The notes: a model not told the origin generated them from the letters alone. Shown: positions 28,519-61,909, numbered from the stretch's first letter. The stretch is 61,909 bases of DNA from an uncultured Candidatus Saccharibacteria bacterium (GCA_964653875.1 CAZZGH010000001.1:564-62472), one strand, 5' to 3'. Translations and numbers: made by a program.

Positions 28519-29502
28519 TTATAACACATGTATTCCATACAGGCTTTTTTCTATCTTTTCTTTATCTACGTTGCAAGTATCGCTTACAATATAGAGGGGC
28601 CTGCCTTTCACTTCATGAAACATTTTATAGAGATACTCTCCGACGACTCCCAATACTATCATCTGCAAGCTTCCCAAGAATAAAATCAGTATAACAATGG
28701 TGGAATTGCCCTTATTAAGCGGGTCGGGGTTGGTGTAATGATCCCAAAAAACATAGCCAGAAAAGATAATGCTGAACATGAACACAATTAAACCAACACC
28801 AAACGCCAGTCTTAGGGGAAAGGCAGAAAACGAAGTTATTCCATTAATAACAAAACCAAACAGCAATCTTTTAAATGAATATTTTGATTGTCCGTGTTTT
28901 CTGGCCTCCGCCGTATAGGGTAAATATTTTTTATTAAAACCGACCCACTGAACCATTCCCCGCAAAAATCTTTCTTTCTCCGGCAACCGCTTAATGACTT
29001 TCAAAACCGGCCTTTTGTATAATGTAAAGTCTGAAACATTTTTGAATTCAAGATCGGTAACATAACTCAAAAATTTATAAAATACCTTGCCCACATTCTC
29101 TCTGATAAAAGAATTTTGTTCGTTTGTGATTCGTTCTCCAATAACAATATCCGATCCGCCTTCGGCGTGTTTTATAAATTCTGGAATAATTCTGGGCGGA
29201 TGCTGCAAATCGCTGTCCATAGTTATAATAAGATCGCCCGCGGCAACATCCATACCGGCACTCAGAGCCGCTTGATGGCCGAAATTACGGGAAAAGCGCA
29301 ATACTTTTATTCGAGGGTCTTTGGAAGCGAATTGACTTAAAATTTCCGGGGTTTTGTCGTAAGAATTATCATCCACAAAAATTATTTCATAATTCTTATT
29401 TAGAGAGTCGCAAACAGAATAAAGCTCCCCCACCAATACCGGGAGAGTCTCCTCTTCATTAAAAACCGGTAAAACCAAAGATAAATCTATGTTTTTCGAC
29501 AT
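28519..29502 (-). CDS. polyprenyl-phosphate glycosyltransferase, GT2 (ArnC/GtrB/DPM1-like) with two C-terminal TM helices
   Basis: LSLVLPVFNEE, VDDNSYDKT, MDSDLQHPP, and C-terminal hydrophobic helices. ATG at 29502 is preferred over TTG 29505. Confidence 0.85.
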   Translation of the reverse strand: MSKNIDLSLVLPVFNEEETLPVLVGELYSVCDSLNKNYEIIFVDDNSYDKTPEILSQFASKDPRIKVLRFSRNFGHQAALSAGMDVAAGDLIITMDSDLQHPPRIIPEFIKHAEGGSDIVIGERITNEQNSFIRENVGKVFYKFLSYVTDLEFKNVSDFTLYKRPVLKVIKRLPEKERFLRGMVQWVGFNKKYLPYTAEARKHGQSKYSFKRLLFGFVINGITSFSAFPLRLAFGVGLIVFMFSIIFSGYVFWDHYTNPDPLNKGNSTIVILILFLGSLQMIVLGVVGEYLYKMFHEVKGRPLYIVSDTCNVDKEKIEKSLYGIHVL

Positions 29503-29534
29503 CAAAGTATATTACCATAAAAATACAGTTTTGT

Positions 29535-36941: not shown

Positions 36942-39188
36942 TTATATTCGGTTAACTTTAACTTTTCGATTGCTTGTGTTTTTTACATTATCAAAATCAT
37001 GTTCGGTCATTAATTGAGCCAGTTTTTTAAAGGTAACTTTTGGCTTCCATCCCAAAATTTTTTTTGCTTTTGAAGCATCACCTATCAACAGATCCACTTC
37101 CGAAGGCCTGAACAGAACCTTATCCACACAGACCAAGAGCTTGCCTGTTTTTTTATCGTAACCCCTCTCATCAACGCCTTTTCCTCGCCATACGATATTG
37201 TATCCGAGATTCTTGCCGACTTCTTCAACAAATTCTCTGACTGTGTGGGTTTCACCGGTAGCAATTAAAAAATCGTCCGGTTCTTTGTGCTGTAAGATCC
37301 TCCATATCGCTTCCACATAGTCCTTGGCATAACCCCAATCTCTTTTTGCATCTAAATTCCCCAAAGAAAGCACATCTTGAAGACCCAGTTTAACCCGCGC
37401 CAAACCTATGGTAATTTTTCTGGTAACAAACGTCTCGCCCCGACGCGGCGAATTGTGAACATAACATTTACCAATGCCGCAATGAAATGTTCCCGACATT
37501 GTTTCTAAATCATAGAACCAACCGGCGTATTCCGGCAAATCTATTATTTTCTTAACTTCAAGAGGATCTTTTTTTAAGTGATGAATAACGCACGCAGTAC
37601 CGCCGTTTTGTATTTTTCTTATAAAAGTTCTCGAAATTGACGTCAATCTGTTCATTTCTCTCTGGGATATGTTTTTCAACATCAGTTTTTTTATTTCTCC
37701 CTCTTTTGTGAAGTTGTTTTGAGTGGTGAGAATATTAAGAGAATAAAATATTCTCCCGTCATCCTTCATTTCTAAGGTGAGATTTATATCCTGACCGGTT
37801 GTTTTGTCTATCAAATACCATAAACCCATTGCCAGTGTCGCAGAGTTTGTTTTAAAGTTTCTAAATTCGTAAGTACAGAGGTTTTCTTTTAACCCATCCG
37901 TTAAATTGTAACCTTTTAAAAAAGCCAGCATAATGTTTGAAGAAGAATTTAAAATTATCGCAGGTACTTTTTTTGTCTTATCTTTGTTATAAATATCTAA
38001 ACTTCTTAGCCAATTGTTTCCGCCCACTAACCTTAATTGCCCGACTATCTTCTTGGGATTAAAACCAGATTTTGACGGGTAAAATGCCGTATGGCCGCCA
38101 GTGACTTTTCGCCAAAGAAAATCAAAATAACTCCTCAATTCTTCGGATGAATTGGTGAATTTTCCGTTTAAACCAACGCCATTTTTTGCGCGAGTAACTG
38201 ATCCGTCTCCAACCATCATTCCCATCAGCTCTGCTTCAGTTTCCGATATAGTATTCCGCAAGTTTTTTATAAGAGGTAGTTCTATCGAGGATAAACGATG
38301 GCCAACTTGCAGGTCTTTTACCTTTTTTTCTATTCCATCCGACATAAACGCGACATGACTCGATGTTGCCATAAAAGCGCCCGATCTTGAGTTTACGAAT
38401 CGTGGGAATTTATTATCCTTTTTTATATTATGGGGGTATGCTGACGCAAAAGTGACATTAACCCACCCTTTCTTGTCCCAAACTTGAATTCCCGAGACTT
38501 TTTTTGACTGATAGCTCTTTTTAGATTCGTCAAATTCTACTATTTCACAAACTGGTTTTATGTCTAAATATTCTTCATCAGATTTTTTATAAAACATTGG
38601 CATAAATGAAGCTATCGTTTCGTGGTTAAATAAAATTCCGTTTGAAGCGAAAAGGCCATATGCATTTCGATGAACTTTGGTCATCCAGTAGGCAAGCGCT
38701 TTAGAGACACCATAGGGTGATTGCGGATTAAACGGCGTGGTTTCTTTTTGGGGTACTTCAAGAACCTTGCCGAACATTTCACTGGATGAAGCCTGATAGT
38801 ATTTAGTCTTAATGCCTGAATCTTTTATCGCGTCCAGAAGCCGCAACGCCCCCAGCCCGGTAACATTAGCCGTATATTCTGGAATATGAAAACTGACGCC
38901 GACGTGGCTCTGTGCTCCCAAATTGTAAATTTCATCAGGTTTAATTTTTTCCAGTAACCGGCTCAAATTTGAACCGTCGGATAAGTCTCCATAAACTGTC
39001 GTAAAATTAGGATACTTTGGATTGTCGTACAGATGATCAATCCTAGCCGTATTGAAAGTGCTGGTCCGGCGCTGAAGGCCGTAGACCCTGTATCCTTTTT
39101 CAAGCAAAAATTCGGCTAAATAAGATCCGTCCTGGCCGGTAACACCCGTAATCAAAGCCGTTTTGAGGGATTGTTTAGACCTTTTCAT
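36942..39188 (-). CDS. gmd: GDP-mannose 4,6-dehydratase interrupted by a 389-aa intein
   Basis: The exteins (190 + 169 aa) match Gmd: [47 protein letters not shown]|...|[14 protein letters not shown]. The joined length of 359 aa is normal for Gmd. Confidence 0.9.
37452..38618 (-). mobile_element. intein with a LAGLIDADG homing-endonuclease domain, inserted in gmd (aa 191-579)
   Basis: Block B TSSH (ATSSHVAF). LAGLIDADG motifs [12 protein letters not shown] and [12 protein letters not shown]. Blocks [23 protein letters not shown], followed by the +1 Ser. The first residue is Thr (ACG, 38618-38616). Confidence 0.85.
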
Positions 39189-43230: not shown

Positions 43231-44333
43231 AATTTATAGCCCTTTTCTCTTAGGGTGTTTATTAAATCTTTGGCTATTTCTTTTTTACTAAATTTAGCCG
43301 TAAATAATTCATAACTATTTTTTGTTATTTTATTCATAAGTACGGTATCATTTTTCAGTTTTAATATTGCTTCAGCTAAACTATCGGGGTCTGCTTTCCG
43401 GCAAAATATTATGTTTTCTCCGTCTTTAAATATTTCTCTCACGGCTTCGGTATCGGCCGTGATAATGGCCTTTCCCATAGCGATAACCTCAAAAATTTTA
43501 TTCGGTATGACCGTTTCTGTTTTGGTTGTGTCTCCAAATATCCCCAAACAGACATCGGCTTTATTTATAAAAGGAGGTAAGTTTTCATAAGGCACACGGC
43601 CGATCCAAATAATATTTTTAAGCCCAAAATTATCTGCCATTTTCCGGCTTGCATCATAATCATGCCCCTTTCCGACAATCTGGAATTTAATATTTTCATT
43701 CTTTAATATATTTGCCGCCTGAACAATATATGGAACCCCATGAAGAGGCATAAAATTGCCATGAAAATTAACCAAAAAACTATGCGGTTCATTTATTTCA
43801 CGCTCATCCACTAATGTAGGATCAGGTTTTTTTAAAAGATCATCATCTGCTCCGTTAAAAACCGTGATCATTTTTTTCGCGGGAATTCCTAATTCATCGG
43901 TCAAAAATTTACCGCCTAAAGCACAGTTAACAATAGCAAAATTAGCCAACCTAACGGCAGTTCTGTCGAGCCATTTGTACCATTTTGCATGAAGACTTTG
44001 AGGAGAATACTTCTTTCGGTCTAGTATATATCCTTCGTAATGAGAAGTAAGCATGTCAACTATAACTGGAATGCGCTGAAACAGGCGCATGAAAGACAAT
44101 ATGGGAGCCATTGCCACCATTGTCTCTTGCGGCGGAAATGCCACTATGACAAAGTCAAAACGTTTATCGGAAATTTTAAAATATTCGGCCACTAATCTCC
44201 AAAATTTTCTAACCCCTCCCGTACTACCGCCATTGCAACAGATTACTTCTGCCCCATTTTCAATCATTCCTTTGACAAGGATGCGGTTCCTGGCATATCC
44301 GGGATCATAATTGCCTAAAAATAAAGTTCTCAT
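43227..44333 (-). CDS. glycosyltransferase, GT-B fold
   Basis: The N-terminus LFLGNYDPGYARNRILVKGMIENGAEV is related to 26665-27720. The C-terminus has IPNKIFEVIAMGKAIITADT. Confidence 0.7.
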   Translation of the reverse strand: MRTLFLGNYDPGYARNRILVKGMIENGAEVICCNGGSTGGVRKFWRLVAEYFKISDKRFDFVIVAFPPQETMVAMAPILSFMRLFQRIPVIVDMLTSHYEGYILDRKKYSPQSLHAKWYKWLDRTAVRLANFAIVNCALGGKFLTDELGIPAKKMITVFNGADDDLLKKPDPTLVDEREINEPHSFLVNFHGNFMPLHGVPYIVQAANILKNENIKFQIVGKGHDYDASRKMADNFGLKNIIWIGRVPYENLPPFINKADVCLGIFGDTTKTETVIPNKIFEVIAMGKAIITADTEAVREIFKDGENIIFCRKADPDSLAEAILKLKNDTVLMNKITKNSYELFTAKFSKKEIAKDLINTLREKGYKL

Positions 44334-45426: not shown

Positions 45427-45466
45427 AAAAACACCCAGCCCCACTGGTGGGGCTGGGTGTTTTTTG
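45427..45466. terminator. strong bidirectional terminator
   Basis: 12-bp stem ACACCCAGCCCC/GGGGCTGGGTGT flanked by AAAA and TTTTT. Confidence 0.8.
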
Positions 45467-45484: not shown

Positions 45485-46477
45485 CTACTTTGCTCTCACA
45501 TATGACGGGATCTGATTTACTGATGTATAAGGAGTGCCTTGTTTATACCAGTTGAACTCATTACTATTGATGCAAAATACTTTTTTGAAAAAGTTAGGAT
45601 CGTCGGCAACCGCTTGATCTCCAGTCGTATTAACCCAATGCAGAATACCCGTATCTTCGCCGGTGGTTTCTACCCCATATACTTTTTTGTCATTCGTTTC
45701 ACAATTTCTGAAAAGACCGGAAGTAACAAGGGTGTCTCTTGTCGGAACAACTATGGTTTTAACTTTAGAAAATCCGCCAAGATGGCCGTAGAATTTAAAT
45801 ATCGCAGGATTTAAGAACAATCTCTTGTAGCCCCAGACGTTAACAATGTATACATCCGGATCGCTTGAGCCAGCGGCACTAATCACGTCACCTTCTTTTA
45901 ACTTTAAGGCAGACAGATTGGTGAACCCTTTTGAAGCTGGCGTCGGTCCTGCACCCATAGGAGAAGATACCGGTGTTAAAACGGGGGTTGTAGCGGGAGT
46001 TGGTGTCGGTGTAGCAGTTGGAGTTGGAGTTGGAGTTGGGGTCAAGGTTGGGCCTCCGCCACCGCCGCCATATGATACAACCGTAGAGCCTCCAACACTA
46101 GTAGAACCACAGGTAGTTGAACTGGGCGTTATTACTACTGTTGTTGTGACTGTTGCAGTAATAGTAAGCGATGATTTGTCTTCAGAGCATGAGGTCGCAT
46201 AAGATCCGTCGTTGTCCAACAATTTTCGGTCGGCTGATTGAAAGATAAAAGTTTGGCCGGAAGAAACTACAACAGTTACTTTGGCATTGGTTGTTGTTAC
46301 TGAATCCGCATCAGAACCACCCGCTATCACAAAGTTGCCCATATCAAGAGCAACCGTAGTGTCTTGAGGGAAATAAGCATCACCGACAGCTTTTGCCTGA
46401 TTAACTCCGATCAAAATTACTCCGCTAACCAAAAGGCTTATAATAAATAAATCAAATTTATTTTTTATTTGTTTCAT
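45485..46477 (-). CDS. secreted or wall-associated protein with a Gly5 plus Thr/Pro-rich linker
   Basis: ATG at 46477 (MKQIKNKFDLFIISLLVSGVILIGVNQAKA is signal-peptide-like). Linker GGGGGGPTLTPTPTPTPTATPTPTPATTPVLTPVSSP lies at about 45932-46069. A C-terminal globular domain follows. Confidence 0.7.
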   Translation of the reverse strand: MKQIKNKFDLFIISLLVSGVILIGVNQAKAVGDAYFPQDTTVALDMGNFVIAGGSDADSVTTTNAKVTVVVSSGQTFIFQSADRKLLDNDGSYATSCSEDKSSLTITATVTTTVVITPSSTTCGSTSVGGSTVVSYGGGGGGPTLTPTPTPTPTATPTPTPATTPVLTPVSSPMGAGPTPASKGFTNLSALKLKEGDVISAAGSSDPDVYIVNVWGYKRLFLNPAIFKFYGHLGGFSKVKTIVVPTRDTLVTSGLFRNCETNDKKVYGVETTGEDTGILHWVNTTGDQAVADDPNFFKKVFCINSNEFNWYKQGTPYTSVNQIPSYVRAK

Positions 46478-46478
46478 T

Positions 46479-46892
46479 TTATTTTGTTTGAGATTGTGCG
46501 CCCCGAATAGTATTAACAACCGGGGAATCGGTTTTTAAGTTTTCCCAGAATAAAACTTGATCTTGATTTATTATCATTTCGTCTTTTGGCCCATGAGGTT
46601 CATTCACACCAAGTTTGACAAGCTGGCCAGCTCCGTTTTCGTTTACTTTGACATAATAAACATCTGACAGAATCAAATAATCGGGACTTATGCTATTTAA
46701 ATGCCCAAAATATATCTGATCGTTTGTTAAAAATATAGCTTGATATGAATTAGGATCAATAAATTGATTTTTATCATATCGGCCGTATTTAGCTGAATCT
46801 ATCAGGGGCAATAGACTTAGAAATCCTACCACCACAGCCAGAATCGCAACGCTTACCGCCGTAATAATTGGAATGTGCTTGCTGGTAATCAT
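46479..46892 (-). CDS. small N-terminally membrane-anchored protein (137 aa)
   Basis: Single TM segment IPIITAVSVAILAVVVGFLSLL. The stop lies 1 nt from the next start. Confidence 0.55.
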   Translation of the reverse strand: MITSKHIPIITAVSVAILAVVVGFLSLLPLIDSAKYGRYDKNQFIDPNSYQAIFLTNDQIYFGHLNSISPDYLILSDVYYVKVNENGAGQLVKLGVNEPHGPKDEMIINQDQVLFWENLKTDSPVVNTIRGAQSQTK

Positions 46893-46910
46893 GAATTATA
46901 TTCCAATTAA

Positions 46911-47873
46911 TTACTGATGGCACTTTATATTATTAATAGTAAATTCCGTACCTCCGGCTAGGACACGTGCATAAACCCATGTTCCTCCGGCATCTTTAAA
47001 CTGAAAACATGTACCTTTGGTTGAAGCGGCGCTTCCGCCAAATAAAACACTTACTGTAGCAGTATTGGTACCCCCGCCAAATTCAGCCGAATAAATAGTA
47101 CTGGAACTGGCGACATTATGACCAACAACAAGATCAGTTTTGAAAAATCCTTGTGATGCCGAAACATAACCTACTGCTTCAAAATCGCTACCCACCGAAG
47201 CGGTACCATCAAAGAAAGACTTACCATCAACCTCTAAAGCGCCCGATATAAGCACATCATTTGAAGCATTTATATCTACGGTATGACCAGCAGTGCCGGT
47301 TCCAAATCTTGACCAGGTAACCGATGCGGTAGCACCAGGCGCACCAGCCACCTGAATCCCGTTTTGGGTGAAGAAGAAAGATGCCGATGCCGTACCTTGA
47401 ACTTCAAAAGTCGTTGAAGGTCCAGTACCACCAATTCCAACCTTGGCATCAAAGAAAACATTGTCATCAAATTCTACCAAGCCCGAAACTAAGATATCAT
47501 CTGCCGCAGCTAATGAGTGGCCCGTTGTCCCCGTTCCAAATCTTGAATAAGCTACCGATGCAGTAGCGCCAGGTACACCGGCTATTTGAATTGTATTTTG
47601 AGTAAAGAAATAAGATGCCGATGCCGTACCTTGCACTTCAAAAGTCGTTGAAGCGGCGGCGCCGACACCGACCCTTATTTTGGCAGTATCAACAGCAAGC
47701 ACGGTAATTGTACCAGCTGCATCTTGGAACAATGCCGCAGTAGCAGAACCAACCGTCTGTGTAAAAGTACCCGTAGTACTCATGTTAGTTCCAATAATAC
47801 TTGATGCATTAGCCATTCCAGTTAATGCCAAAGACAGAACGACCAAAAGAGAGATGACAAAATATTTTTTCAT
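46911..47873 (-). CDS. secreted Gly/Thr/Ala/Ser-rich protein with a tandem 78-aa repeat and a C-terminal Cys pair
   Basis: Signal peptide MKKYFVISLLVVLSLALTGMANA. Repeats STTFEVQGTASAS(Y/F)FFTQN..., and Cys289/Cys318. Confidence 0.7.
   Translation of the reverse strand: MKKYFVISLLVVLSLALTGMANASSIIGTNMSTTGTFTQTVGSATAALFQDAAGTITVLAVDTAKIRVGVGAAASTTFEVQGTASASYFFTQNTIQIAGVPGATASVAYSRFGTGTTGHSLAAADDILVSGLVEFDDNVFFDAKVGIGGTGPSTTFEVQGTASASFFFTQNGIQVAGAPGATASVTWSRFGTGTAGHTVDINASNDVLISGALEVDGKSFFDGTASVGSDFEAVGYVSASQGFFKTDLVVGHNVASSSTIYSAEFGGGTNTATVSVLFGGSAASTKGTCFQFKDAGGTWVYARVLAGGTEFTINNIKCHQ
47190..47651 (-). repeat. intragenic tandem duplication, period 234 bp (78 aa)
   Basis: AGATGCCGATGCCGTACCTTG(A/C)ACTTCAAAAGTCGTTGAAG occurs at 47379 and at 47613. 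Confidence 0.85.
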
Positions 47874-47880
47874 ATTCTTA

Positions 47881-47908
47881 ATTATAAACTAGGATTTAGA
47901 GGATACAA
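47881..47908 (-). promoter_or_regulatory. promoter: TTGTAT, 16-nt spacer, TATAAT. The -10 ends 7 nt before the ATG at 47873 (leaderless geometry)
   Basis: Minus-strand -10 is at 47886-47881. No Shine-Dalgarno sequence lies between it and the ATG. Confidence 0.45.
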
Positions 47909-47928
47909 TAGATAAAATGTGGATAACT

Positions 47929-50244: not shown

Positions 50245-50988
50245 CTACTTACGAGTAAATAGGTTGAATCTGATGATGTGCCAAATCGCGGCCAATCCGT
50301 CTTTCCAGTTAATTTTTTTGCCCTCTTTGTACGTGCGCCCCGAGTAAGAAATCGGCACTTCTGTAATTCTTAAATTAAATTTCCCCACCCAAGCCGTAAG
50401 TTCAGGATCAATGCCAAATCTTTTAGATATAAGATGGGGGTAGATTTGATTTATTGAGTCCCTGGAAAAAACCTTATAACAAGTGTACATATCGGTTAAC
50501 CTAACTCCGCTGAAAACATTGGACATCCAATTCAAGACCCTGCTAAATAAGTAGCCGTGCTTATAAACGATAGTGTTATTGCGCCCCAACTCAAGAAAAC
50601 GAGAACCATAAACAACATCTGCCACACCATCCATAATCGACCTAATCAGAGCAGGATAATCCTGAGGGTCATATTCCAAATCAGCATCTTGGATTAAAAC
50701 AATGTTTCCCGTCGCCTCCTGAAATCCCCTTTTTACGGCCGCTCCCTTGCCAGAGTTCTTATCCAAAAAAACCACCTTATACCCCACCTGTGGATTAACG
50801 ACACTGAATGTCGTTATATTAAAACTGTGGATAACTTCTCGGGAACCATCCGTAGAGCAGTCATCAACAAGAATTATCTCTTTTTCAAGCGGTAGCTCTA
50901 CGCTTTTCACGGCAGAAATAAGCCGGGTCAGCGTTTTTTCTTCATTAAAAACCGGTATAATTATGCTTAACTTTTTATATTCCATCAT
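50245..50988 (-). CDS. glycosyltransferase family 2 (soluble, DPM1/GtrB-like catalytic domain)
   Basis: LSIIIPVFNEEKTL, VDDCSTDGS, QDADLEYDP. Confidence 0.85.
   Translation of the reverse strand: MMEYKKLSIIIPVFNEEKTLTRLISAVKSVELPLEKEIILVDDCSTDGSREVIHSFNITTFSVVNPQVGYKVVFLDKNSGKGAAVKRGFQEATGNIVLIQDADLEYDPQDYPALIRSIMDGVADVVYGSRFLELGRNNTIVYKHGYLFSRVLNWMSNVFSGVRLTDMYTCYKVFSRDSINQIYPHLISKRFGIDPELTAWVGKFNLRITEVPISYSGRTYKEGKKINWKDGLAAIWHIIRFNLFTRK
50795..50840. repeat. near-palindrome TTAACGACACTGAATGTCGTTA plus TGTGGATAACT (DnaA-box-containing 11-mer)
   Basis: Related at the DNA level to 61845-61900 but lying in a different reading frame. Confidence 0.75.
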
Positions 50989-55797: not shown

Positions 55798-57141
55798 TCA
55801 ATTAGTTCTTGTGCTGTTTGGAGTTACCCTATATATCATTCCAGCAGAATCATCTGACACATAAAGTGCTCCGTCCGAGCCGAATTTCAAATCAACCGGC
55901 CGGCCTGATATTTTGCCATCTGCCCCCAGCCATCCCGATATAAAATCCTCTGGCTTTTGAGATAGAACCTTGCCGTTGACATCTAAATCGTACCTTACTA
56001 TTTTGTACCCGACAGGAACACTCGAATTCCAAGACCCATGAAACGCCACCAAAAGGTCCCCTGCCCATTCTTTTGGCCATCCATTGCCGGATGGAATAAA
56101 CGCCAAGCCCAAAGGAGCTGAATGGGCTTGCACTTGTATGATTGACGGCTCTGTCTGTGTGCAATCGGAAGACAGATCCTTCCTTTCTATTTTTTCGGGA
56201 TTAAATGTTTTATCTCTCACTTGGTTGCCGTAACAAAATGGCCAACCATATTTTTTGGCAGTGAACTTATCTTCCGATCCTGCAACTTTAATAATGTTTA
56301 TTTCGTCCGGCGGCAGATTATCCCCCAAATTATCGCGCCCCATTTCGGTTGCCCAAATTTCTTTGGTTTTCGGATGAAAAGTAAAAAATACGGAGTTTCT
56401 TAATCCACCGGCGAATTCGGCCGTAAATGTTTTTCCCTCAGGGTCAGTTTCTAACATTGCCGCCCTTTTCCAGGTAGTAGTTTCAACACAAACGTCGCAA
56501 GACGAACCGACGCTTATATATAACTTGACTTCAGAAAGAGTGGTATCGCCTTTTTTCCCCGGAAGTAGGGAAGTTTTTCTAAAATTAGGGCCGAATAATA
56601 TCGTTCTTGTGAAATGTCTCCCATCAGCGGGAAAATTGGTAATATTCTGACCTTTATCGGACATTACTGTTCCACTTTTAATATCATATGCATAACGAGC
56701 CACCTGCTGTGTCTCCGCTACATACAAATAAATAGTTTCCCCGGACTTATAAAATGCCAAGCCATGGGGTTTGTTCAATCCGCTTAGTATGGTCGTTTTT
56801 GCTTCAGCGATGCCGTCCTTATCTTTATCTTTTAAGAAAACCACTTTTCCGGATTTAGTTTCACTGACAAACGTTCTCCCCAACGAATCAAAAGTTATAA
56901 CTCTCGGATCTTCCAGATCTTTCGCAAAAGTATTAATTTTAAACCCCTCCGGAAGTTTAAGGTATGAAAGCGATGAGTCGCTGGTTTGGGATACGATGGG
57001 TTTTTTAAACTGAGGAAGATCGTATCCAGCCAATTTTTTTAATAAGTAAAAATCGGTAAAAAATAAGTAAGCCAAAAAGACCAAAATTACAATAAAAAAA
57101 GCCTTTAACTTAAAACTAGAAGTTAAAAATTTAAAATTCAT
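55798..57141 (-). CDS. membrane-anchored PQQ-dependent sugar (glucose/sorbosone) dehydrogenase-like beta-propeller
   Basis: N-terminal TM segment, PHGLAF, and GRDNLGDNLPPDEINII, which are typical of the GSDH family. Confidence 0.75.
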   Translation of the reverse strand: MNFKFLTSSFKLKAFFIVILVFLAYLFFTDFYLLKKLAGYDLPQFKKPIVSQTSDSSLSYLKLPEGFKINTFAKDLEDPRVITFDSLGRTFVSETKSGKVVFLKDKDKDGIAEAKTTILSGLNKPHGLAFYKSGETIYLYVAETQQVARYAYDIKSGTVMSDKGQNITNFPADGRHFTRTILFGPNFRKTSLLPGKKGDTTLSEVKLYISVGSSCDVCVETTTWKRAAMLETDPEGKTFTAEFAGGLRNSVFFTFHPKTKEIWATEMGRDNLGDNLPPDEINIIKVAGSEDKFTAKKYGWPFCYGNQVRDKTFNPEKIERKDLSSDCTQTEPSIIQVQAHSAPLGLAFIPSGNGWPKEWAGDLLVAFHGSWNSSVPVGYKIVRYDLDVNGKVLSQKPEDFISGWLGADGKISGRPVDLKFGSDGALYVSDDSAGMIYRVTPNSTRTN

Positions 57142-58705
57142 ATACCAAAAATGTGTACCCTATTCTATCAATGGGTTGATATAAAGATAACCAGTCTAAA
57201 TTTTTATCCTTTGATTTTTGACTTAACTCTCTTAGCCTGACCAGGAAATGGATATTCACGGCATATTTTCCAGACGGATTTAAAAACGATTTTTCTACAG
57301 AAGGTATAATGTTTTTAATCCCGTAATATCCCGGATCAAAAAATATATTAAAATCAGAATTTACTACCTTCATTCCGGGGTGGTTTTTTTGATATTCCGC
57401 AAGACGTTTCAAATCATGCTTCCACTCCAAGTTTGAGTCATCCAAATATTTATAACCGTTAACCGGTCCCCCAATAAATTCATTGAAATAAGCCAGATAA
57501 TCAGGGTGGATACTCACGGCAGAAAAAATATACCACAACCCTAAAACAATGACAACAACCGAAATTGACACAGATTTGACGCCGTCCCATTTTATTCTAA
57601 TCACCCGAACCAATCCTCCCGCAAAAAGAATTAGAAAGGGGAAAGCCGGCAATAAATAACGAATACTAAGATTATGAGCTTTTAAGCTTGTGACAATCGA
57701 GAAAAAAATCATAGGCAGAAATATAAACAACTTGTCACGATTATTGATATGTAACTTCCTATAGAAAACAAGGGCAGCTGTAAAAGCAATAAGCGCGGGA
57801 ATGGGGGTCTTTATCAAAAATGCCTCCAAAAAATAATACCACCAGCCGTTTTTTGAAAACTGGCCGTTCAAATAGAAATTGTAAGAACTATTTGCATCTG
57901 CATAAATTGTATTCACACCCCTTAAGTAAAACCCCAGGTCTGTCGGCAGAAGGTAAGAAAAATATACAACAATAGCGGCCGGAAAAATTATTATGGCTGT
58001 TATTTTGACAGATCGGCGCATGATTTGATAAAAATCATTTTGCTTAGATTTAATGTTAATAAAAATTAAAAATAAAATTACCGGTAGAAACAGGACAGCC
58101 GAGAATTTAGAGCTTAATGCCAAACCAAGAAACAGTCCGGAATAAATTAAATATCTGTTAAAATTGGTTCTAACAAACTTCCATAAATAATAGAGAGCGG
58201 CAAACGAGAAAGAAGATAAAGCCAAATCGGTGGTTACAAATTGAGCGTGGGCAATAACATTCGGCATAAAGGCGTAAAGAAACAAGGACAGAGCACCTGC
58301 TTGGGGACTGAATATTTCGGAAGTCCATCGATAAACATAAAACCCCAATAAAACAGACAAGAGCATAACGGGCAATCTCCCCCAAAACAGCAATTTGTCA
58401 ACGTCATTAGAAAGCAGAAATTTTTTGCCGAATATCCACTCATTTTTAAAAGGACCAGATAAATCAGGGTCTTGGCTGTCAAACTTTAAATCCATAAACA
58501 GCAAAGGAAAGGAAGAGATTAATTTAACAAAAGGCGGGTGTTGAGGATTTAAAGTAATTTGTCCCATTTTCCAATAAGAGTAGCCACTTGGAAGATGGGT
58601 TATTTCGTCGTTTGCTGGACTAAAATTTTGTGCGCTAAAAAACGGCAGTAGAAATGTAATCGCCAACAAAATTGATACTATAATCTTTATTTTCACGCCA
58701 TTCAT
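57131..58705 (-). CDS. GT-C-fold glycosyltransferase (PMT_2/ArnT, GT39-like)
   Basis: NDEITHLPSGYSYW...NPQHPPFVKL first-loop motif. Polytopic, 524 aa. Confidence 0.75.
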   Translation of the reverse strand: MNGVKIKIIVSILLAITFLLPFFSAQNFSPANDEITHLPSGYSYWKMGQITLNPQHPPFVKLISSFPLLFMDLKFDSQDPDLSGPFKNEWIFGKKFLLSNDVDKLLFWGRLPVMLLSVLLGFYVYRWTSEIFSPQAGALSLFLYAFMPNVIAHAQFVTTDLALSSFSFAALYYLWKFVRTNFNRYLIYSGLFLGLALSSKFSAVLFLPVILFLIFINIKSKQNDFYQIMRRSVKITAIIIFPAAIVVYFSYLLPTDLGFYLRGVNTIYADANSSYNFYLNGQFSKNGWWYYFLEAFLIKTPIPALIAFTAALVFYRKLHINNRDKLFIFLPMIFFSIVTSLKAHNLSIRYLLPAFPFLILFAGGLVRVIRIKWDGVKSVSISVVVIVLGLWYIFSAVSIHPDYLAYFNEFIGGPVNGYKYLDDSNLEWKHDLKRLAEYQKNHPGMKVVNSDFNIFFDPGYYGIKNIIPSVEKSFLNPSGKYAVNIHFLVRLRELSQKSKDKNLDWLSLYQPIDRIGYTFLVYEF

Positions 58706-60543: not shown

Positions 60544-61909
60544 TTATTTCCTAATCTGTTCGATAAGATTCCTCATCAACTCGCCAGTTTGAGGATCCAG
60601 TTCGGCATATTTTAATCCTTCTTGCAAATCTTTCAATGCCTGCTTTTTATTATTTAGAGCAACATAAACTAGCGCCGAGTTATAATAAACACGGGGATTA
60701 TTCGAGAGAAGGATTTTAAGCTTCTCTATATTCTCAATGGCTTTGGCCAAATTGCCTTGCTGGGCATAAATAACGGAAAGATTTTGATAAGGATAGTAAA
60801 AATTAGGATTTATTTCTATTGCTTTTTCGTATAATTTAATGGCTCCATAGATATCTCCTCTGGATTGCAAAATAGTTCCTAGATTAAAATGGGGTTCTGC
60901 AAATATATCTTTTTGAGAGGCGGCTATCTTATAATATTTCTCGGCATTTCCCATGTCATTCATGTTGTAATAAATATTCCCTACATTATTATTTATCCTG
61001 GAACTGTCCGGTTCATATTTTAGGATATCAAGATAAAAAGCAAGCTGGTTGCCCCACAGAAGATTGCGTTGAATAGACTGATAAGCAAAGAATGAGAGAT
61101 ATGCAACCAATGCAGCGATTACCAAGGTTCGACAGAGTTCCCAAGGAGTGGGATTCCCACTCCGAGAACCTTGAATCTTCAAAAAGGTCGAACCTTTAAA
61201 ATCCAAAAGTTTCACAAGATAAAAAGAAACTATGAGCCAAAAACCGACCATCGGCAAATAGAGCCAGTGTTCATATATCAATGCATTTATAGGAGTGATG
61301 CCGGAAACAGGACCAAGGGGAACAAAAAACAAAGCCACGCCTAAAAACCATACTCGATATCTTGATATTTCGAAATTTCTAAACAAGACACCGTTGACCC
61401 TTTCTTTTTTGTATAAATGCCTAAGCCATGCCAGCAGAGTAACCAATGCGACTCCGACTATCCAAACCGGCCACTGAAACAGCGAGGTATAGACAATGGC
61501 GCTTCGTTCCATATGAAGCCCGGCGGGAATTATCAAAAGTTTTAGATATTCCCAAAGTATAGGCAGAAAGGTAAATACTCTGACATATAGATTTTCAGAA
61601 TAAATATTGGGTTCAGCGTAAAAATTAAGAGTATTCTGAAAATTTAAAACCGTAAGCCGCAAGATGCCGTAGGAAATAATTACCGTAAAATACGGCCAAG
61701 TTTTTATGATACCCCGTTTGATGGATTTCAAAAATCGTTCTTTTGAAACAGTAGAGACATAAAAAGCGAGAGCTAAAAATGGAAAGATTATGGCAGTTTC
61801 CCGGCTTAAAAGAGCAAATATCAGAAAAACACAAGAAAGCACTTTTAACGACATTGAATGTCGTTGTGGATAACTCTCTCTAACGACATTCAATGTCGTT
61901 AATTCTGAT
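60544..61909 (-). CDS. membrane protein with C-terminal TPR repeats (TMTC-like paralog), 5' end probably outside the window
   Basis: The reading frame stays open to the window edge (the ORF-track start at 61893 is TTG). TM region followed by TPR (NLGTILQSRGDIYGAIKLYEKAIEINP). Confidence 0.65.
   Translation of the reverse strand, partial: SELTTLNVVRESYPQRHSMSLKVLSCVFLIFALLSRETAIIFPFLALAFYVSTVSKERFLKSIKRGIIKTWPYFTVIISYGILRLTVLNFQNTLNFYAEPNIYSENLYVRVFTFLPILWEYLKLLIIPAGLHMERSAIVYTSLFQWPVWIVGVALVTLLAWLRHLYKKERVNGVLFRNFEISRYRVWFLGVALFFVPLGPVSGITPINALIYEHWLYLPMVGFWLIVSFYLVKLLDFKGSTFLKIQGSRSGNPTPWELCRTLVIAALVAYLSFFAYQSIQRNLLWGNQLAFYLDILKYEPDSSRINNNVGNIYYNMNDMGNAEKYYKIAASQKDIFAEPHFNLGTILQSRGDIYGAIKLYEKAIEINPNFYYPYQNLSVIYAQQGNLAKAIENIEKLKILLSNNPRVYYNSALVYVALNNKKQALKDLQEGLKYAELDPQTGELMRNLIEQIRK
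61845..61900. repeat. two inverted copies of the 21-bp near-palindrome TTAACGACATTGAATGTCGTT flanking GTGGATAACTCTCTC
   Basis: Copies at 61845-61865 and 61881-61900. They differ only at the central base. TGTGGATAA (61865-61873) is a consensus DnaA box. Confidence 0.85.

Follow-up and report, generated by a model that had tools for sequence, protein, structure and literature searches.

The window analysed here, that is, the whole stretch of 61,909 nucleotides (nt; ~39% GC) taken from an uncultured Candidatus Saccharibacteria record (GCA_964653875.1 CAZZGH010000001.1:564-62472; the source genome measures 0.8 Mb), contains a glycan island, and we are concerned with three co-oriented open reading frames (ORFs) embedded in it, which we call genes A, B and C. 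They lie on the minus strand between genes for glycosyltransferases of the GT4 family, with GT4 and GT2 genes flanking the unit, in the right half of the window, over most of which the coding genes are on the minus strand. An earlier reading of the DNA, hereafter the original prediction, described them as three exported or anchored proteins among glycosyltransferase genes, and the reading frames, at the coordinates given, and their place among glycosyltransferase genes are borne out. The unit comprises the following features:

46911..47873, minus strand: gene A, 320 amino acids (aa), with a Sec-type signal peptide, two ~78-aa repeats and a Cys-closed C-terminal β domain
46479..46892, minus strand: gene B, 137 aa, with a single N-terminal transmembrane helix and a conserved ~100-aa domain
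45485..46477, minus strand: gene C, 330 aa counted from the ATG, with a signal peptide, a β-sandwich, a Gly6 plus Thr/Pro linker and a basic C-terminal domain
47881..47908, minus strand: promoter of the A-B-C unit, consisting of TTGTAT (47903-47908), 16 nt and TATAAT (47881-47886)
45427..45464, minus strand: intrinsic terminator closing the A-B-C unit, a hairpin with a 17-base-pair stem, 9 G-C pairs and a flanking A-run and U-run
47918..47926, minus strand: DnaA-box consensus TTATCCACA, separated by 9 nt from the downstream -35-like hexamer of the promoter and overlapping the end of the upstream GT4 gene

A-B-C is an autonomous operon set among glycosyltransferase genes, with its own leaderless-type promoter and its own terminator: the intergenic gaps are short (18 nt from the stop of A to the start of B, and 1 nt from the stop of B to the ATG of C), and the promoter and the terminator stand at the two ends of the unit. 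The start of C is most likely this ATG, at 46477, rather than a TTG upstream at 46519. Between the -10 box and the ATG of A lie 7 nt, and no Shine-Dalgarno sequence is present, which is the leaderless-type geometry proposed earlier. The promoter was not listed by a consensus scan, because its -35 box fits just three of six positions; it is credible despite this weakness, since the -10 box and its spacing are conserved (TATAAT is also found 7-9 nt before the ATG of the A orthologues in loci L001, L003, L021 and L022) and since TAnAAT boxes pile up genome-wide in the same position, peaking sharply with their ends 6-9 nt before ATGs (49 of 576 ORFs). Shine-Dalgarno-like motifs are barely enriched before start codons across the whole genome (13% against 7% in a control window), and the overall pattern suggests that leaderless translation is widespread in the source genome; leaderless-type starts look habitual there, and A stands at the head of a transcription unit. 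At the other end, the terminator hairpin folds with -35.6 kcal/mol (z = -6.5; none of 200 shuffled sequences folds equally well), in keeping with the strong terminator that had been said to isolate the unit. Given these two signals, what A-B-C shares with the glycosylation genes is a neighbourhood, not co-transcription.

The exact DnaA-box consensus occurs in four copies in the window, against 0.57 expected (47918-47926, 50826-50834 and 61865-61873 on the minus strand and 37120-37128 on the plus strand). The copy upstream of A has a counterpart in the same place in L001 and a one-mismatch counterpart, TTATCAACA, in L021, and it may be a regulatory site. Rfam recovered no RNA family between positions 44000 and 49500, save one sub-threshold match. 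Plus-strand ORFs overlapping A, B and C were set aside as mirror images of a low-complexity coding strand.

The original prediction had raised the question of whether homologues of these genes occur without neighbouring glycosyltransferase genes. We compared ten further loci, four obtained from identical-protein look-ups and six from whole-genome matches; they represent a single order, with several genera and no fewer than four families. In all ten the A-B-C order is kept and the genes lie inside the same island, so the proposed linkage survived this check. The shared content of the island includes a GSDH-like β-propeller, a Wzy_C-TPR protein, TMTC-like TPR proteins, PMT_2, a DPM-synthase-like GT2 and a GT4 block. 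The place of the operon in it varies: A-B-C is found among or adjoining the TMTC-like/PMT genes in six loci, between two GT4 genes in the window and three other loci, and between GT2-like genes downstream of the GT4 block in the remaining one. The operon has moved within the island, never out of it. One family member, genome G206, lacks B: its repeat-less A' is followed directly by C, after which come a Wzx-like flippase and Wzy_C-TPR.

A is present in three to four of nine genomes of the family. Among family members lacking the triad, a protein with the C-type C-terminal domain is encoded 3-6 kilobases (kb) from Wzy_C-TPR in four of five genomes, and in two triad-less loci inspected in detail Wzy_C-TPR is accompanied by a Wzx-like flippase and a WbaP-like phosphoglycosyl transferase. 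When 13 genomes of the order were compared for co-occurrence, TMTC-like genes were found in 7/7 genomes with the triad versus 2/6 without it, and the GSDH-like gene in 5/7 versus 2/6; a strong PMT_2 orthologue was found in only four of the 13. All named homologues come from Patescibacteria, Parcubacteria or Candidatus Yanofskybacteria. Judging from these protein sequences, the organism is a Yanofskybacteria-like member of the Patescibacteria, and the actinobacterial framing of the original prediction can be kept only as an analogy.

Protein A begins with a signal peptide at aa 1-23 (MKKYFVISLLVVLSLALTGMANA/SS, the slash marking its end) and is rich in Ala, Gly and Thr (13% each) and Ser (10%). 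The mature protein, with an isoelectric point (pI) of 4.6 and a mass of 30 kDa, opens with a near-invariant stretch at aa 24-40 (SSIIGTNMSTTGT...). Its only two Cys residues, Cys289 and Cys318, close a small C-terminal β domain and are invariant in 81 homologues. The signal peptide, the composition and the C-terminal Cys pair had all been recognized before and are borne out. The two repeats are placed as follows:

aa 76-153, nt 47415-47648, minus strand: A repeat 1, ~78 aa
aa 154-231, nt 47181-47414, minus strand: A repeat 2, ~78 aa

Each repeat is opened by the best-conserved block of A, FEVQGTASASYFF. The repeats had been taken for a recent, near-identical tandem duplication, an interpretation ruled out by their divergence, by the two-repeat norm of the family and by a tree of repeat units. 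At the DNA level the units are 79% identical over 136 nt of the 234-nt units, with 29 of 30 positions matching only at the spot cited for the duplication, and Tandem Repeats Finder detected no array in A; at the protein level 48 of 80 aligned positions match. Two repeats are the commonest state of A, found in 62 of 120 homologues (range 0-5, by motif count). In the tree, repeat 1 of the window groups with repeat 1 of other species, with 100/100 support, and not with its own repeat 2.

Homologues of A number in the hundreds. In the closest syntenic relatives A is the most diverged protein of the island (48% against a median of ~72% in L003, and 46% against ~70% in L005), and its ~78-aa module is also found in open frames of 884-6621 aa in the same class. 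A itself yielded no Pfam, NCBIfam, PHROG or PDB profile match (the PHROGs search returned only E values of 0.1-0.2), and a Foldseek comparison of its low-confidence model with PDB gave no match at E <= 0.001; neither in sequence nor in fold did these searches (PHROGs, PDB profile and the fold search with that model) connect A with a tail-fibre family. A lipoprotein or LPXTG anchor was considered and rejected, neither motif being in the sequence. Because A is acidic, fast-evolving and Gly/Thr/Ala/Ser-rich, and because its module is common to giant surface proteins, we take it to be most likely a fibre or coat subunit, short and exposed.

Contig C83 of the source genome (2654 base pairs) consists of a single open frame, which encodes part of a giant surface protein, 884 aa or more, with one A-type repeat (...STKFEVQGTASASYLLTGNTLQVGGFASVAYSRFGT...). 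Its motifs LNAxYLDG and GFLxPRMTTxQRDAI look like those of tail-fibre-like proteins; its sole Pfam match is a sub-threshold one to DUF2793.

Protein C has a signal peptide at aa 1-30 (...VNQAKA/VGD) followed by three parts, for which the confidence of the structural model is given as the predicted local distance difference test (pLDDT):

aa 31-125, nt 46103-46387, minus strand: Thr-rich β-sandwich of C (pLDDT ~95)
aa 137-173, nt 45959-46069, minus strand: linker of C, GGGGGG-PTLTPTPTPTPTATPTPTPATTPVLTPVSSP, disordered in the model (pLDDT 30-40)
aa 184-330, nt 45488-45928, minus strand: C-terminal domain of C, basic (pI 8.5), extremely conserved, modelled with moderate confidence

The signal peptide and the Gly6-Thr/Pro linker are as originally described. 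The Gly-run and the Thr/Pro linker are conserved family-wide, as are four invariant Cys residues (97, 123, 259 and 302), and C combines, in its signal peptide and linker, two features expected of a substrate of PMT-type O-mannosylation, Sec export and a Ser/Thr/Pro-rich disordered region. Most orthologues are ~400 aa long and have an added C-terminal SH3_3 domain, which resembles the cell-wall-binding SH3b modules of lysins in PDB. No Pfam, NCBIfam or PHROGs family was found for C, PDB profile matches were limited to the SH3b part of the orthologues, and Foldseek of the C model against PDB and viral structures gave no match at E <= 0.001; weak fold matches of the N-terminal domain are to glycosidase β-sandwich domains (E 0.02) and to a CBM2 domain. 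Two further exported proteins carry the C-terminal domain, one of 1329 aa on contig C28 at its N-terminus (75% identity) and one of 565 aa on contig C9 at its C-terminus, giving three exported carriers in the genome altogether, and it is a candidate new anchoring domain. C is most likely a tether, in which the Gly/Thr-Pro spacer, disordered in the model, links the Thr-rich β-sandwich to the basic C-terminal domain.

A C-related C-terminal domain marks a secreted protein of 565-589 aa encoded in two relatives (L037 3852-5621; L040 5659-7392) and in the source genome itself (C9:14227-15921). The copies in L037 and L040 have a HEFQHL motif, of the HExxH type, and adjoin a gene for a WbaP-like phosphoglycosyl transferase, with Wzy_C-TPR near and, in L040, a Wzx-like flippase. 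The C9 homologue is near the phosphoglycosyl transferase and Wzx genes of the source genome, which are on that contig.

Protein B, with one N-terminal hydrophobic or transmembrane helix and a conserved ~100-aa domain that we infer to face outwards, is the best conserved member of the triad (63-79% identity) and belongs to a family of 2909 representative clusters at E <= 0.001. We found no Pfam, NCBIfam, PHROGs or PDB match for B, and its distant relatives are likewise without a Pfam match above threshold. Of six more distantly related genomes of the class, four have B-like genes standing between genes for giant and for secreted proteins (cohesin-like by eye). B looks more like a general accessory factor of surface-protein operons than like a glycosylation substrate, because its huge family sits elsewhere in surface-protein operons without island-type neighbours. 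Export of the triad as a whole is indicated by the signal peptides of A and C, the N-terminal helix of B and the invariant paired Cys residues.

In four loci from Paceibacteria (L030, L031, L032 and L033), distant B-like genes belong to another conserved surface-protein operon. A giant protein (917-2218 aa) is encoded before the B-like gene in L030, L031 and L033. After the B-like gene comes a gene for a secreted protein with a mature start like E-F/Y-T-S-x-x-F-K/I-I/V-x-D/E-P-V, and several proteins that are cohesin-like by eye are encoded downstream, the adjacent one in L030 having a hydrophobic end segment.

The enzymes to which the triad is linked include those listed in the original prediction, that is, PMT-like and TMTC-like GT-C proteins and GT2 synthases, all of which were found in the window:

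57131-58705: PMT_2 gene product; PF13231 PMT_2 56.6 bits (cut-off 26.1) and PF02366 PMT 33.3 bits (cut-off 22.7); NDE motif after the first transmembrane helix
58702-60516: TMTC-like product; PF08409 TMTC_DUF1736 26.9 bits, marginal against the cut-off of 27; clear TPR repeats; FVFDD motif after the first transmembrane helix
50245-50988: GT2 product, 247 aa; best PDB match dolichol-phosphate-mannose synthase 5mlz (E 6e-17); best NCBIfam match AglJ, 101 bits against a cut-off of 325
28519-29505: GT2 product, 328 aa; best NCBIfam match NF047588 PgfS (E 1e-77, 261 bits, full length; equivalog cut-off 500); also ArnC-like

The island further comprises a Wzy_C-TPR gene (Wzy_C 55.6 bits against a cut-off of 31.7, plus ~270 aa of TPR repeats), about ten GT4 genes and an ABC exporter that resembles PglK and MsbA, below the equivalog cut-offs. 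The PgfS-like GT2 gene lies 16 kb from the A-B-C operon. The Wzy_C domain is common to O-antigen ligases, polymerases and O-oligosaccharyltransferases, and the PDB matches of Wzy_C-TPR cover its TPR part only. The GT-C enzymes have acidic first-loop motifs (FVFDD, NDE and QDE), which are presumably catalytic.

Contig C28 and the window's contig overlap by 55 nt, in frame, once the end of the latter (61909) is reverse-complemented, and the island therefore continues into C28. Joined in this way, the 5'-open TPR gene at 60544-61909 supplies the C-terminal part of a complete TMTC-like GT-C. Upstream of that gene C28 encodes another TPR-bearing GT-C, of 693 aa, exported proteins of ~400 aa and 211 aa with Ser/Pro-rich stretches, and the 1329-aa exported protein; none of these three exported proteins has anything above the Pfam threshold. 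The relatives L003, L005 and L006 share the arrangement, with proteins of 1200-1250 aa.

The best single reading of the locus is the one proposed originally, namely that it encodes surface glycoprotein substrates of the island, and the proposal is supported in part. We base it on the conserved gene neighbourhood, the conserved acceptor-like linker of C and the co-occurrence with TMTC-like enzymes, which is genetic evidence; a system dedicated to these proteins was not borne out and is unlikely, and B looks like an accessory instead. On the substrate reading, A-B-C would encode an exported cell-envelope protein set, in which A would be a fibre or coat subunit, C a tether and B a membrane-anchored accessory factor for assembly or anchoring, and a dependence of these products on the envelope-glycan island would explain why the operon stays within it. 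O-glycosylation outside the membrane would most likely fall on the Thr/Pro linker of C, and probably also on Ser/Thr residues of A and of the β-sandwich of C. Two routes are conceivable: GT-C enzymes (the TMTC-like TPR proteins and PMT_2) might use polyprenyl-phosphate sugars supplied by the GT2 synthases, or the Wzy_C-TPR ligase-like enzyme might transfer an oligosaccharide en bloc. As for the more complete model, with O-glycosylation of at least C and probably also of A, we see the chances of its being right or wrong as about equal.

Several observations weigh against this reading. Wzy_C-TPR is found in 211 of 301 sampled genomes of the class, against about seven with a full A and a strong B, and the numbers behind the co-occurrence are small and lack phylogenetic independence. 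A tblastn survey of the six more distantly related genomes detected no island-type neighbour of the B-like genes. About nine of ~714 ORFs of the genome have Thr/Ser/Pro-rich stretches, seven of these with hydrophobic N-termini, so that any system glycosylating the linker would be a general one and C one of several targets. The C of the window is itself without an SH3b domain, and neither a fold nor a sequence match backs wall binding by its C-terminal domain, the best hints being at E ~1 to EccB1. Finally, AlphaFold modelled A poorly (pLDDT 63, with 81 homologues), and the fibre nature of this protein is read from its composition, repeats and paralogues; a poor monomer model would fit an obligate oligomer, yet it is uninformative.

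The kind of arrangement seen here is already known. Ser/Thr-rich disordered regions are O-glycosylated extracellularly by a pair of a GT-A and a GT-C enzyme, and the substrate gene cnm is co-transcribed with the pgf genes (PMC5856776; PMC12041528). As in the Pgf system of Streptococcus mutans (cnm-pgfS-pgfM1-pgfE-pgfM2) and the streptococcal GtrB/PgtC2 system, a candidate substrate gene sits with glycosylation genes in the window (PMC5856776; PMC12041528). The likeness extends to a pair of a GT-A polyprenyl-phosphate-sugar synthase and PMT_2-type GT-C enzymes acting outside the membrane on Thr/Ser-rich disordered segments of exported proteins, for which the window has candidate genes, and to the GT2 product of 28519-29505, whose best NCBIfam match is PgfS itself, although its score is below the cut-off. 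Unlike Pgf, A-B-C is a separate transcription unit, its proteins belong to unrelated, undescribed families with no LPXTG signal, and the island adds TMTC-like TPR enzymes, Wzy_C-TPR and the GT4 genes.

In Actinobacteria, PMT O-mannosylates Thr/Pro-rich linkers, and here as well a Sec-exported protein with a Thr-Pro linker is encoded near a PMT/PMT_2 GT-C and a polyprenyl-phosphate-mannose-synthase-like gene; unlike there, the organism belongs to the Patescibacteria, and only four of the 13 genomes of its order have the strong PMT_2 orthologue. The eukaryotic TMTC1-4 O-mannosyltransferases, which act on cadherin β-sandwich domains, provide another parallel, as the island encodes a GT-C with an FVFDD-type first-loop motif fused to C-terminal TPR and, nearby, the Thr-rich β-sandwich protein C; the setting differs in being bacterial and known here from genes, and in the marginal TMTC_DUF1736 match. 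Extending the analogy, one may envisage bacterial TMTC-type O-glycosylation with cognate substrates, in which TPR-bearing GT-C enzymes would act on the linker of C, on its folded β-sandwich and on the GTASAS segments of A, while the C-terminal domain of C, present also in the 1329-aa coat-like and the metalloprotease-like proteins, would serve as an envelope anchor of a new type that tethers proteins to a polymer attached by Wzy_C-TPR. We offer this scheme tentatively, as a speculation whose odds of holding in full are rather low.

The main rival to the substrate reading is that the island makes a secondary cell-wall glycopolymer, by means of a phosphoglycosyl transferase, the GT4 enzymes, a flippase and the Wzy_C-TPR ligase, and that the basic C-terminal domain of C, joined by SH3b in orthologues, binds it non-covalently, tethering A and other proteins with the domain; SLH and CWB2 domains bind wall polymers in much this manner in Firmicutes. 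The coupling would then be one of anchoring and the proteins would need no glycosylation, even though both explanations could hold together. We consider this a possible explanation, if a doubtful one. It would account for the near-universal occurrence of Wzy_C-TPR in the class independently of the triad, and it is consistent with the presence of C-type C-terminal-domain proteins near Wzy_C-TPR even where the triad is missing (with WbaP-like and Wzx-like genes alongside in the two loci described above), with the basic character of this domain and its presence on three exported proteins, and with the SH3_3 domain of most C orthologues. It leaves unexplained, on the other hand, the conserved Thr/Pro linker, the several TPR-bearing GT-C enzymes (TPR domains typically bind protein) and the co-occurrence of these enzymes with the triad, and no structural match to a known wall-binding fold supports it.

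Alternatively, A might be an S-layer lattice protein and the island an S-layer glycosylation cluster. In Geobacillus stearothermophilus (SgsE/WsaB), the S-layer glycoprotein gene is reportedly next to the slg cluster, which contains a Wzy_C-type O-oligosaccharyltransferase, and the window is similar in having a gene for an exported structural protein in or near nucleotide-sugar, glycosyltransferase, ABC exporter and Wzy_C genes. A is indeed acidic, secreted and Thr/Ser/Ala/Gly-rich, with one conserved Cys pair and with a strong promoter and a terminator of its own unit. We nevertheless regard this explanation as unlikely: at 30 kDa mature A is small, it is limited to a subset of the clade (about 7/301 class genomes and 3-4/9 family genomes), Pfam and NCBIfam searches detected no SLH, CWB2 or other S-layer or anchoring family in A, B or C (SH3_3 being present in C orthologues only), and the Wzy_C enzyme differs from that of Geobacillus in its ~270 aa of TPR and its near-universal occurrence in the class. 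An S-layer or coat role would suit the 1329-aa protein at the edge of the island, a carrier of the C-terminal domain of C, better than it suits A.

A further possibility, which we deem quite improbable, is that A, B and C assist the machinery that assembles or exports the glycan, for instance as a carbohydrate-binding scaffold or a chain-length factor, and are neither substrates nor a surface structure. The tight conserved linkage to glycan genes, the weak fold matches of the N-terminal domain of C to glycosidase β-sandwich modules and CBM2, and the bitopic nature of B, which is shared by some co-polymerases, would agree with such a role, but A evolves faster than the enzymes and varies in repeat number, its module occurs in giant surface proteins, the triad is absent from most enzyme-carrying genomes, and B-like genes are found elsewhere in surface-protein operons without island-type neighbours. 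Least probable of all is that the operon and the island are functionally uncoupled, their proximity reflecting inherited synteny or a hitch-hiking cassette derived from phage tail fibres: all loci come from one order, so that shared ancestry inflates the ten-out-of-ten count, and the motifs of the C83 paralogue look like those of tail-fibre-like proteins, but the triad has moved within the island and never out of it, no PHROG or viral fold was matched, and the window ORF lists and Pfam scans contain no integrase or phage genes.

The envelope of Patescibacteria is thought to mediate attachment to host cells, and we know of no identified surface glycoprotein in this group. Full-text literature searches returned no description of an A-B-C cassette or of surface-protein glycosylation in Patescibacteria. 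What is new in the locus is thus not the arrangement as such but the undescribed protein families and the candidate-phyla setting with TPR-fused GT-C and Wzy_C enzymes. In B, moreover, a widespread family of small membrane proteins (~2900 representative clusters) is identified as a companion of surface-protein operons. Together, A, B and C are three small, laboratory-expressible proteins from large undescribed families that are genetically tied to defined glycan-transfer enzymes, and with them the targets of TPR-fused GT-C and Wzy_C enzymes in Patescibacteria become directly testable.

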